From IMG/VR virus record IMGVR_UViG_3300027759_003944: a stretch of DNA of 58,609 bases, one strand, 5' to 3'. This DNA is from a virus (lineage: Duplodnaviria > Heunggongvirae > Uroviricota > Caudoviricetes). This document shows positions 35,438 through 37,589 of this stretch, in pieces (position 1 is the first letter of the stretch; each line of letters begins with the position of its first letter). The notes below the pieces were generated by a model. The model was not told where the DNA came from. It searched no databases and saw nothing but the letters and a program-made list of their open reading frames with translations. Both the position numbers and the translations under genes were made by a program.

Positions 35438-35484
35438 GTAATACTTAGGTAGTACTTGACCAGAAATTCCCTTTTTGTTATACT
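35438..35484 (+). promoter_or_regulatory. Sigma70-type early promoter with upstream GTAATACTTAGGTAGTAC element (copy 1)
   Basis: TTGACC(35456)-17 nt-TATACT(35479). Confidence 0.8.
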
Positions 35485-35514
35485 AGTGGCATACAAAGCA
35501 AAAAGGAGCCAGCA

Positions 35515-35724
35515 ATGGGATATCGTGTAGTTGACACTGTGGACATGATGCGTGACAAATACGGCCCTCGCAAGGGACTGGAAGGCCCGTTCAACTTCTC
35601 AGGTCGTGTGTTGTATTATGACAACAAACAGGGCCAGTACTACGATCCTGCCACTGATTTCTATGTGGAGCAGGCGGAAATGGACGAAATAAATACCCGT
35701 TTCTTTGAACAATTCAAAAAGTAA
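35515..35724 (+). CDS. Small hypothetical early protein
   Basis: 69 aa; AAGGAGCCAGCA RBS; GLEGPF...VLYYD...GQYYDP. Confidence 0.8.
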   Translation: MGYRVVDTVDMMRDKYGPRKGLEGPFNFSGRVLYYDNKQGQYYDPATDFYVEQAEMDEINTRFFEQFKK

Positions 35725-35767
35725 TACTTTGGTAGTACTTGACCATTAATTCAATATTTGCTATAAT
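35721..35767 (+). promoter_or_regulatory. Sigma70-type early promoter with upstream GTAATACTTTGGTAGTAC element (copy 2)
   Basis: TTGACC(35739)-17 nt-TATAAT(35762); 24/25 nt identical to copy 1 over the upstream element. Confidence 0.85.
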
Positions 35768-35810
35768 AGAGACATAAACAGTAAACAACCGCATTTCAAA
35801 GGAGCCAACA

Positions 35811-36839
35811 ATGAGTGCAATTCGTGTAATTAAAGGTGTGTATCGTAACAAACCCGTGCGCAACATCGCTTTCAATCTTGTGTCAGGCTTTCAGTCTGGT
35901 GCCAAAGGTAACTTCGTGACAGTAGAAAACAACGGTGCATTTCCCAACTGCCCCGACACCATCCGTATCAAAGTCAACAACATTAGCGACATCGAGTATG
36001 TCAATGGAGATGCAGTGAGCAAAGAAAATACAGTGGCGTTTGCCAAGCCCCCAGTAGAGGCAGAGACAGAAGAACAAATTATGACACGTATTCGTGAGCG
36101 TTTTGACATCTTGCATGAGATGACAAAGGCCTGTGTCAATGGTGACATTCGTGCTATGATTGTCAGCGGCCCTCCTGGCGTTGGTAAATCTTTTGGTGTT
36201 GAACAAGAGATTGAAAAAGCCACACTGTTTGACAAATTGGCAGGCAAGCGTCTCCGTGCCGAAGTTGTCAAAGGTTCAGCAACACCCATTGGCTTGTATC
36301 AAGCCCTGTACAAATATTCCGATGACAATTGTGTGTTGGTGTTTGATGACTGTGACAGCATTCTGCTTGATGACGTGGCATTGAACTTGCTGAAGGGCGC
36401 ATTGGACTCCGGCAAGAAGCGTACCATTTCATGGTTGTCAGAATCCTCAACTCTTCGTCGTGAAGGCATCCCAGATCGTTTCGAGTTCAAAGGCTCGGTG
36501 ATCTTTATTACCAACTTGAAGTTCGATCAAATGAAATCGCAAAAATTGCGTGATCACTTGGATGCATTGCAATCACGCTGTCACTACTTGGACTTGACAC
36601 TTGACACCATGCGTGACAAAGTGTTGCGTATCAAGCAGATTGCCAAAGACGGCGTGTTGTTTGCAGACTATGATTTTGAAGAGTGTGCTCAAGACGAGAT
36701 CATTGAGTTCATGGAAGCAAATCAGAACCGTTTGCGTGAGATGAGTTTGCGTATGGCATTGAAGATTGCAGACTTGCGCAAGAGTTTCGCAGGCAACTGG
36801 AAGCGTCTTGCAGAGACTACATGTATGAAGAGTGCCTAA
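35811..36839 (+). CDS. AAA+/P-loop ATPase
   Basis: GPPGVGKS Walker A, VFDDCD Walker B, FITN sensor 1, ALQSRC arginine finger. Confidence 0.85.
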   Translation: MSAIRVIKGVYRNKPVRNIAFNLVSGFQSGAKGNFVTVENNGAFPNCPDTIRIKVNNISDIEYVNGDAVSKENTVAFAKPPVEAETEEQIMTRIRERFDILHEMTKACVNGDIRAMIVSGPPGVGKSFGVEQEIEKATLFDKLAGKRLRAEVVKGSATPIGLYQALYKYSDDNCVLVFDDCDSILLDDVALNLLKGALDSGKKRTISWLSESSTLRREGIPDRFEFKGSVIFITNLKFDQMKSQKLRDHLDALQSRCHYLDLTLDTMRDKVLRIKQIAKDGVLFADYDFEECAQDEIIEFMEANQNRLREMSLRMALKIADLRKSFAGNWKRLAETTCMKSA

Positions 36840-36840
36840 C

Positions 36841-36930
36841 ATGGCCTGGCTTGCTGTGCTACTGTTAGTGTTTGTAGGCCATCCTGTGTTGGCATTGATA
36901 TTGGCATTTTTGATTTTGATGTCTGAATAA
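36841..36930 (+). CDS. Very small hydrophobic protein (29 aa)
   Basis: MAWLAVLLLVFVGHPVLALILAFLILMSE*; starts 1 nt after the ATPase stop; not in ORF track. Confidence 0.5.
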   Translation: MAWLAVLLLVFVGHPVLALILAFLILMSE

Positions 36931-36937
36931 TAATTTT

Positions 36938-36968
36938 ACCCCGGGGATTGGTTGGCTCCGCCCCGGGT
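36938..36968 (+). ncRNA. Candidate regulatory RNA hairpin with anti-RBS loop
   Basis: CCCGGGG/CCCCGGG stem; loop ATTGGTTGGCTCCG is complementary to GGAGCCAAC(A)AT at 35801. Confidence 0.45.
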
Positions 36969-36974
36969 TTTTAC

Positions 36975-37000
36975 ACAGGGACTTCGGTCCCTGTTTTTTT
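36975..37000 (+). terminator. Rho-independent terminator with cUUCGg tetraloop
   Basis: ACAGGGAC-TTCG-GTCCCTGT followed by T-run. Confidence 0.92.
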
Positions 37001-37027
37001 GACTTGCGTTTGCAGATGTGTTACTAT
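36999..37027 (+). promoter_or_regulatory. Sigma70-type promoter (probably leaderless)
   Basis: TTGACT-17 nt-TACTAT; ATG 7 nt downstream. Confidence 0.6.
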
Positions 37028-37034
37028 ATACAAT

Positions 37035-37589
37035 ATGCACTTCGCACCTCCGAAAAAGCAAATTGTAGTTCAGCCGTCTCAAGCACTGTATAAATGGTCC
37101 AGCATCTTTAACCGATTGCAAAGAAACTTTTTTACAGAGCCAGTTGAACTACGGCGCGAACGTCAAATACGTGACTTCATAACACTCAATGGCTACCGAC
37201 AAATACGTTTCAAAACAGACACAGATGTGTTTGGAGATTTGCCTAGAGTAGAGCACAGTGCCATAGCTGACCTTGTGGTGATAACAGATCAAAAGTTCAG
37301 CAGATATCCTTGTACCGCTATCATTGAAAAGATACAATGGCATTTAGAGCAGTGCCCGGCATTGTACTTGTGCTTGAACAGACACTACATCAACATAGAC
37401 AACAGTTATCATGACACTGCATTGGACAGCGAGTTTACCTTGGCCATAACACAGTGGTTGAAAAACAGTTTGCCCGGCGTGGATGTTGTTGATTTGAGTT
37501 TGAACTATTTAGACACTGGCCAGCAGTTCTCTTGGGCAGTGCCAGATCGACACTATTTTATCAGGAAACTCAATGACCAAACTAGTTGA
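37035..37589 (+). CDS. Hypothetical protein
   Basis: Start MHFAPPKKQ chosen downstream of the terminator and promoter. Confidence 0.7.
   Translation: MHFAPPKKQIVVQPSQALYKWSSIFNRLQRNFFTEPVELRRERQIRDFITLNGYRQIRFKTDTDVFGDLPRVEHSAIADLVVITDQKFSRYPCTAIIEKIQWHLEQCPALYLCLNRHYINIDNSYHDTALDSEFTLAITQWLKNSLPGVDVVDLSLNYLDTGQQFSWAVPDRHYFIRKLNDQTS

Follow-up and report, generated by a model that had tools for sequence, protein, structure and literature searches.

The locus considered here raises the question of whether the 3' end of an early phage transcript can shut off translation of a gene carried on that same transcript. It lies in a stretch of 58,609 nucleotides (IMG/VR virus record IMGVR_UViG_3300027759_003944), referred to throughout, at its full length, as the window, and derived from an uncultured freshwater T4-like giant phage. 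Two early genes of the window, one of them encoding an AAA ATPase, share an extended ribosome-binding site (RBS) of the form GGAGCCARC, and a hairpin whose loop is complementary to this RBS, termed here the anti-RBS hairpin, stands just before the terminator of the unit. The features on which the argument depends are the following.

35515–35724, + strand: early gene encoding a protein of 69 amino acids (aa) (phrog_13298)
35811–36839, + strand: AAA ATPase gene, 342 aa (phrog_1250, function unknown)
35505–35513, + strand: extended RBS GGAGCCAGC of the 69-aa gene, whose ATG is at 35515
35801–35809, + strand: target site, the extended RBS GGAGCCAAC of the AAA ATPase gene, whose ATG is at 35811
36940–36967, + strand: anti-RBS hairpin, with stem 36940–36946 / 36961–36967 and loop 36947–36960
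36968–37000, + strand: U-rich spacer, intrinsic terminator (hairpin 36975–36994, cUUCGg loop) and seven T residues

A preliminary description of the locus had proposed that the hairpin loop silences early genes by pairing with their RBSs, and a direct reading of the window finds the RBSs, the hairpin and the terminator exactly where that description had placed them. The target RBS GGAGCCAAC comprises the Shine-Dalgarno (SD) sequence GGAG and the spacer that follows it, ending 1 nt short of the ATG. Its exact reverse complement, GTTGGCTCC, occupies positions 36951–36959 within the 14-nt loop. The 9/9 match that had been claimed is thus present, as are the possible extension of the pairing to 12 bp with one bulged G and the 9/9 pairing of the loop with the RBS of the 69-aa gene through one G-U pair. 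The stem of the hairpin is clamped by G+C pairs, an A/U-rich stretch precedes it, a U-rich spacer follows it, and the terminator hairpin begins 8 nt downstream. The motif GGAGCCARC or its complement is found at these three places only in the 58.6 kb. Within the window by itself, a complement of 9 nt could arise by chance, because 164 same-strand complements of at least 9 nt link some RBS region to some place in the window (78 crude gene calls). The significance of the complementarity therefore rests on comparison with related loci.

Covariation of the ATPase ribosome-binding site and the element

Three protein-seeded scans of IMG/VR yielded 191 loci in which the ATPase is 75–100% identical to that of the window, all of them on uncultured viral contigs, some of which reach 340–350 kb and are 95–97% complete. 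At the 179 analysable loci the ATPase RBS (positions −16 to −1) was compared with the 70 nt that precede the downstream intrinsic terminator, and perfect Watson-Crick complements were counted. A complement of at least 9 nt is present in 160 of the 179 loci and one of at least 7 nt in 171; with the reversed RBS as control, none of the same 179 loci reaches 9 nt. A second count, in which the match had to include the G residues of the SD sequence and to precede a run of T, recovered this layout of match and T-run in 177 of 185 loci. The element lies 6–2084 nt (median 293 nt) beyond the ATPase stop codon, and the gene content of the intervening DNA is highly variable.

Most loci carry the pair found in the window, often lengthened to 10–11 nt (GGAGCCAAC(CA)). 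Where the RBS is altered, the downstream element is altered to match it, giving at least eight different RBS/anti-RBS pairs. The pairs that differ from that of the window are listed by their RBS.

GGGCTAGTAA: complement 10/10, at five loci
GGGCTAGAAA: complement 10/10, at five loci, one base on each side apart from the GGGCTAGTAA pair
GGAGTTGGC: complement 9/9
GGAGCTAAC and GGAGCTAA: complement over 8–11 nt
GGAGCGAAA: complement 9/9
AAGGAGCTAG: complement 10/10
AGGAGCTA and GGAGCTA: complement over 7–8 nt

When every RBS is compared with every element in a matrix of 13 representatives, the best match falls on the diagonal, with a mean of 8.8 nt against 6.1 nt off the diagonal (permutation p ~1e-5). 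Similarly, for 25 distinct RBS 12-mers the mean match to the own partner is 8.76 nt, against a permuted mean of 6.58 nt and a permuted maximum of 7.76 nt (p <= 2e-4). Mapped on a maximum-likelihood tree of 147 distinct ATPase proteins, RBS type shows at least 16 changes. Cross-tabulation of the window-type RBS and the window-type loop gives 112 cases with both, 26 with neither, 2 with the loop only and none with the RBS only. The loop follows the RBS in five of five phylogenetically independent contrasts (seven when all branches are used) and never the reverse. The preliminary description had named covariation of loop and RBS among relatives of the ATPase locus as the test of its proposal, and the relatives pass it through the matched pairs, the covariation of the stem described below and the five concordant contrasts.

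Chance complementarity, conserved through close relatedness only, is the simplest alternative, and the 164 complements to some RBS within the window show how readily a single match of this length arises. The same explanation would have to produce at least eight matched pairs, both permutation results, an invariant loop beside variable stems and independent contrasts that all agree. Because RBS and element covary, a chance origin is excluded for all practical purposes. Since both sites have changed together through at least eight pairs, the ATPase RBS and the element almost certainly base-pair with each other as RNA to control translation, a pairing that we infer from covariation.

Structure of the element and its proposed action

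Within 47 diverse window-type elements a 10-nt core of the loop is invariant, whereas the remainder of the loop varies in length and sequence. The alignment of these 47 sequences shows compensatory changes, on both sides and keeping the pair, at 11 of the 18 predicted pairs of the two hairpins, the terminator stem included. Two builds of the element can be distinguished. In RBS types A–D and G the anti-RBS is contained in a loop of 14–20 nt, and in the other types it is single-stranded and stands immediately before a small hairpin, on the 5' side; both builds continue with a U-rich spacer and end in a terminator hairpin with a U tail. The anti-RBS is predicted to be mostly unpaired, with values of 0.6–0.93 in the loop types. 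The succession of element, U-rich spacer and terminator with U tail resembles the layout of many base-pairing small RNAs (sRNAs) and the build of small RNAs derived from a 3' untranslated region (3'UTR).

The element is probably an anti-RBS RNA, formed at the 3' end of the unit, that prevents ribosomes from initiating on the ATPase gene, in part at least by action in trans. The exposed loop, or in some relatives the single-stranded stretch, would pair with the RBS of the ATPase mRNA, and the resulting duplex would cover the 3' half of the SD sequence and the whole spacer. Across the pairs, the complementary stretch always spans the G-rich SD core and the spacer up to the start codon. The predicted energy of the full RBS/anti-RBS duplex is −18.4 kcal/mol, compared with −7.9 kcal/mol for the SD/anti-SD duplex, and because of this approximately twofold stability the pairing would be expected to keep 30S subunits off the mRNA; it may also expose the mRNA to decay. 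In the predicted fold of the window the last CC(G) of the anti-RBS pairs with UGG in the 5' part of the loop. Because these flanking GG and CC residues pair with each other, contact would begin as a 6-nt loop-to-strand interaction through UUGGCU and would then spread. The element is made only once the early unit has been fully transcribed, and for that reason it would impose a delayed negative feedback on a near-consensus early promoter. A form acting in trans would be a terminated or processed 3' fragment, directed against the ATPase mRNA and a few other mRNAs tagged with a matching RBS, namely those of small early genes and, in some lineages, of a holin-like gene.

The same pairing could also be read as positive or protective. 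RegB of T4-type phages cuts early mRNAs at GGAG in SD sequences (reviewed in PMC3014915), and the paired stretch always includes the G-rich SD core, so that the duplex might shield GGAG from a RegB-like endonuclease, or, by bringing both ends of the mRNA together, might make it more stable. Pairing over the SD sequence and spacer blocks the ribosome as well, however, so protection would bring silencing with it; no RegB homologue came to light, though no search was aimed at one; and the known pairings of 3' ends or sRNAs over an SD sequence are repressive (PMC7398697, PMC3868564). A role that is protective in the first place is accordingly given little credence here.

A further possibility is that the two copies act at the level of DNA, as short inverted repeats read in double-stranded form by a dimeric protein or a recombination system, for instance as part of the promoter-stem-loop (PeSL) cassettes by which genes are shuffled in T4-type phages. 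The terminator and early promoter behind the hairpin have the composition of a PeSL, and the highly variable set of genes that separates the ATPase gene from the element would also suit this proposal; in addition, the stem-loops of PeSLs are often hairpins of a G-run and a C-run, for which their authors speculated on a DNA-binding protein (PMC2839356, PMC4122927). Such an origin is nonetheless very improbable. One copy is always located at the SD sequence and spacer of a gene, while the other lies in or beside a hairpin with a compensatory stem, always on the transcribed strand and before a terminator. A G-U pair is tolerated at the second RBS, repeats of 7–11 bp are too short for homologous recombination, and complementarity between loop and RBS is absent from the PeSL descriptions (PMC2839356, PMC4122927).

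Possible action within and between molecules

The scan of the window predicts no terminator between 35774 and 36975, and the ATPase RBS and the hairpin are predicted to reside on one molecule. In a purely cis fold-back the 3' hairpin would pair only with the RBS of its own mRNA. Translation would be possible as long as the mRNA is being made, and completion of the transcript would silence it or mark it for RNase III, with no free sRNA, as in the logic of icaR mRNA and of the fbi element of hok mRNA. The position of the element before the first or second terminator, a stoichiometry of one element per RBS and, in the non-A types, the presence of the tag at the ATPase RBS only within the contigs examined agree with such a mechanism. 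Four loci (L051, L070, L105 and L121), which belong to two different RBS types, argue in the opposite direction, since there a good intrinsic terminator, a new promoter and an extra gene separate the ATPase gene from the element and the match is still perfect. Matching RBSs at a great distance from the element point the same way. In genome G001 (349 kb) the only other tagged RBS, with 9 nt, is that of a holin-like gene (Pfam GTA_holin_3TM) 118 kb away. In G006 (342 kb), which has a loop of another, non-A type, the RBS of the homologous holin-like gene matches the loop of its own genome 11/11, and the 9-mer occurs at only these two places in the genome, 221 kb apart. The holin-like RBS of G025 matches its own loop over 10 nt. 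In G011 and G012, close relatives of the window, a tagged 89-aa gene with its own consensus promoter is found 38–40 kb upstream; this MSDLVT gene was not found in five other large contigs. Many relatives moreover display the layout of seed, hairpin and terminator that is typical of trans-acting sRNAs. A purely cis mechanism is thus unlikely, and action between molecules as well as by fold-back appears likely from these arrangements. Of the two forms put forward at the outset, a 3'-derived small RNA and a cis fold-back element, both are possible, and the hints favour action in trans.

Several observations weigh against a repressive RNA that acts partly in trans, and they concern each of its parts. 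With regard to the pairing, 8 of the 185 loci have no perfect match of 7 nt or more; in L090 and L130–L135 one C/A mismatch stands between the ATPase RBS GGAGCCAG and a downstream element of TAGCTCC type, which may be recombinant or retargeted, and no clear element was found downstream of the ATPase gene in L087. The sign test on the five independent contrasts stops at p = 0.06, the lowest value that five pairs allow. The preliminary description had regarded exposure of the loop on folding as essential, and this was found in part: UUGGCU (6 nt) is fully exposed in the fold of the window, whereas the CC that ends the anti-RBS takes part in a pairing within the loop, giving a mean unpaired probability of 0.67 over the 9 nt. 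As to the effect, we infer repression solely from the position of the pairing over the SD sequence and spacer. As to action in trans, the element always follows the ATPase gene and shares its strand, as expected of a pure cis element. The holin-like RBS is matched in three of the six genomes that have both genes, a proportion far above the 0.1% or so expected per gene, and is not a universal target: in G010, the nearest large relative of the window, it matches over GGAGCC only, and in G004 and G034 it has no match to the loop of its own genome. The 69-aa gene was rejected as a general target. The RBS shared by two genes had been taken as the target, and of these the ATPase gene is the constant one, whereas the 69-aa gene has the same RBS in no type but the commonest. 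In three genomes of other types the RBSs of its homologues are unrelated, so that the 69-aa gene is at best a lineage-specific secondary target.

Metatranscriptome assemblies from four studies contain contigs that are 88–100% like the ATPase region, and in two runs they also cover the stretch of hairpin and terminator. These are assembled contigs of relatives, which cannot show RNA ends or a processed sRNA and may include DNA, a further point on the opposing side; at most they suggest weakly that such phages were active in those waters. Two apparent signs of an sRNA in these data, the depth that one run shows over the hairpin bin and a contig that ends just past the terminator, were rejected as evidence.

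The holin-like gene (L206:1252-1806 in G001, L209 in G006, and L230–L309) has a stretch that is A/T-rich and resembles the T4 late promoter TATAAATA a few nt before its RBS. Among 80 holin-like homologues the RBS spacer takes a few recurrent forms, several of which equal RBS types of the ATPase gene. The loop of G006 is of the TAGCTCC kind seen at the mismatched loci and matches the holin-like RBS perfectly. The additional copies of the motif across whole genomes (G001, G010–G012 and contigs of other types) were considered as RBSs and discarded, as nearly all are coding. GGAGCCAAC has 19 copies in the 349 kb of G001, against none of the reversed control, and it is over-represented there because it encodes Gly-Ala-Asn in repeated fibre-like proteins, which accounts for 17 of the places.

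An extended form of the proposal, which we regard as speculative and doubtful, is a trans-acting, address-coded sRNA in which each lineage possesses a private RBS tag and the corresponding anti-tag. The early RNA would time the shut-off of the ATPase and would hold the late holin-like gene until early transcription stops, thereby serving as an RNA clock for lysis. Orthogonal pairs would then have been selected to escape or to impose silencing between co-infecting relatives, as in the heteroimmunity of phages P1 and P7 mediated by c4 antisense RNA.

Genomic setting and comparison with known systems

The remaining features of the unit surround the two genes and the hairpin.

35456–35484, + strand: promoter of the 69-aa gene (−35 TTGACC, −10 TATACT), with an upstream repeat at 35438–35455
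35739–35767, + strand: promoter of the AAA ATPase gene (−35 TTGACC, extended −10 TGCTATAAT), with an upstream repeat from 35721
36841–36930, + strand: open reading frame for a strongly hydrophobic 29-aa peptide, between the ATPase gene and the hairpin, its ATG overlapping the ATPase stop
36999–37037, + strand: promoter of the next gene (TTGACT, 17 nt, TACTAT), including its ATG at 37035, about 7 nt past the −10 box

A promoter scan and a repeat search of the window agree with the preliminary description in giving each of the two genes its own strong sigma70-like promoter with the same upstream element. This element, GTAATACT..GTAGTAC, occurs within the window at these two promoters only. At 35438–35455 and 35721–35738 it takes the form of a direct repeat of GTARTACTT with 11-nt spacing that abuts the −35 box. 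The repeat is limited to the window and its close relatives, most other relatives having other sequence at this place and L154 a similar stretch; it is possibly a binding site that tunes both promoters. The suggested coincidence of GGAGCCARC RBSs with GTAATACT..GTAGTAC promoters is found for both copies in the window, whereas in relatives the element is restricted to close kin and is not tied to RBS class. The element was accordingly rejected as the mark of a regulon, as most relatives lack it in front of the ATPase gene. The near-consensus ATPase promoter itself (GGTTGACC..TGCTATAAT), with its extended −10 box, is kept in all relatives.

Peptides similar to that of the 29-aa open reading frame (MAW...GHP...) are encoded behind the ATPase gene in many relatives, and the product is possibly a small membrane protein. 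The terminator (36975–37000) overlaps the −35 box of the next promoter (36999–37027), and the early unit ends here. Relatives display the same succession of terminator, promoter and ATG before a different downstream gene (e.g. L001 and L003). In the window and in relatives the gene behind the terminator starts about 5–7 nt past the −10 box and lacks an SD sequence, which suggests that its mRNA is probably leaderless in both. In the four loci with separated partners the inserted cassette directly follows the ATPase stop and consists of a terminator hairpin (loop CTAGC), a sigma70 promoter and an extra gene, mobile in appearance and in the style of PeSLs.

Homologues of the ATPase are present in more than 1,300 cultured phages, with 41–46% identity in PA5oct-like jumbo phages. 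The T4 homologue adjoins nrdC.9 and is nrdC.10 by T4 gene order. The 3 kb around the locus have no DNA match in 50,697 cultured phage records. No such element was found in G029, a more distant genome with 37% ATPase identity, and the locus of the T4 homologue contains 7-mers at most. At the locus of the PA5oct homologue there is an 8-mer in a hairpin arm 20 nt past the stop, which is within chance for 1.9 kb. The small hairpin concerned (L229, Pseudomonas phage PA5oct, 3160–3185) complements 8 nt of its own RBS spacer with its 3' arm, and its position is suggestive while the match remains within chance. No claim is therefore made for cultured phages, T4 and PA5oct having no such system beyond chance.

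Little is charted of RNA-based control in lytic phages, and no study at all has dealt with the uncultured freshwater T4-like giants considered here. At least eight matched RBS/anti-RBS pairs can be drawn ready-made from their natural variation, and with them strong in silico evidence for a long-range or trans RNA-RNA interaction, directed at an early gene that is conserved from T4 to jumbo phages (the NrdC.10-like ATPase). If the proposed action is correct, transcriptional take-over and RegB cleavage would be joined by a third means of shutting off early genes in T4-type phages; autoregulatory RNAs derived from 3'UTRs would thereby be known to exist in viruses, and through the holin-like target early transcription might be tied to the timing of lysis. 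The orthogonal pairs would be natural parts for synthetic translational control.

No Rfam family, c4 (RF01695) and the known Hfq-binding sRNAs included, matches at its gathering score anywhere in the window. Over the element itself, at E <= 10, the best hit is STnc290 with 21 bits against a threshold of 60 (E = 0.93), and no family is matched. No paper was found that describes such an element in lytic phages, in keeping with the preliminary description, which had known of none in such phages; RNAs of this kind, that is, 3'-end anti-RBS RNAs, are already known elsewhere.

In hok mRNA of plasmid R1 the fbi and tac elements join the 3' end to a 5' element more than 300 nt away, and the full-length mRNA is inert. 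The 3' end of hok pairs with a 5'-terminal activator and not with the SD sequence, activation proceeds through 3' trimming, and the product is a toxin accompanied by the antisense RNA Sok. The comparison with hok fbi made in the preliminary description extends to the pairing of a 3' element with a distant 5' one; none of these other traits of hok is present at the locus. The pairing at the present locus covers the SD sequence and spacer of a 342-aa ATPase gene instead of an activator element, and the promoter scan of the window revealed no antisense promoter on the opposite strand, so that the locus does not belong with the hok/sok type I toxin-antitoxin systems.

The c4 RNA is encoded upstream of its targets in a temperate immunity operon, where it has an antirepressor under its control; RNase P excises the RNA. 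Matched changes of loop and target give the c4 RNAs of related phages different specificities. The c4 antisense RNA of phages P1 and P7 is described as co-transcribed with its target operon and as pairing through its loops with the RBS region of the target (Citron and Schuster 1990, as cited in PMC8198154; RF01695). In contrast, the present element forms the 3' end of an early operon in a lytic-type T4-like phage, has an ATPase gene as its target and does not match RF01695.

The surroundings of the element resemble the PeSLs of T4-type phages, which are terminator-promoter modules and recombination sites (PMC2839356, PMC4122927). Here too a stem-loop or terminator is followed by a strong sigma70 early promoter between small variable genes, and cassettes have been inserted at this very locus. 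The likeness describes the setting and not the pairing of the loop with an upstream RBS, which forms no part of the PeSL description.

In the icaR mRNA of Staphylococcus aureus an anti-SD motif in the 3'UTR pairs with the SD sequence of the mRNA itself and hinders translation (Ruiz de los Mozos et al. 2013, PMC3868564). The window shows the same relation, a 3'UTR motif complementary to the SD sequence of the same mRNA. The icaR pairing is described chiefly as an interaction inside a single mRNA, where it gives rise to an RNase III site. In contrast, the partners studied here, though predicted to share one molecule in the window, are separated by a terminator and promoter in four loci, and matching RBSs lie 38–221 kb away, in some genomes more than 100 kb.

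A close parallel is offered by OppZ and CarZ of Vibrio cholerae, autoregulatory sRNAs derived from 3'UTRs (Hoyos et al. 2020, PMC7398697). These bacterial RNAs, which RNase E releases and which require Hfq, were demonstrated by experiment, whereas the present element belongs to a lytic T4-like phage and is read from sequence. It differs from them also in that the seed lies in a hairpin loop in most lineages, in its many specificities and in having no relation to them in sequence or in Rfam. As in OppZ and CarZ, the putative regulatory RNA forms the 3' end of an operon, with whose terminator it ends. Similarly, it would pair with the translation initiation region of a gene of its own operon, here over 9–11 nt of the SD sequence and spacer as judged by covariation. 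The proposed outcome is likewise the same as in OppZ and CarZ, a post-transcriptional negative feedback that operates on separate molecules as well.

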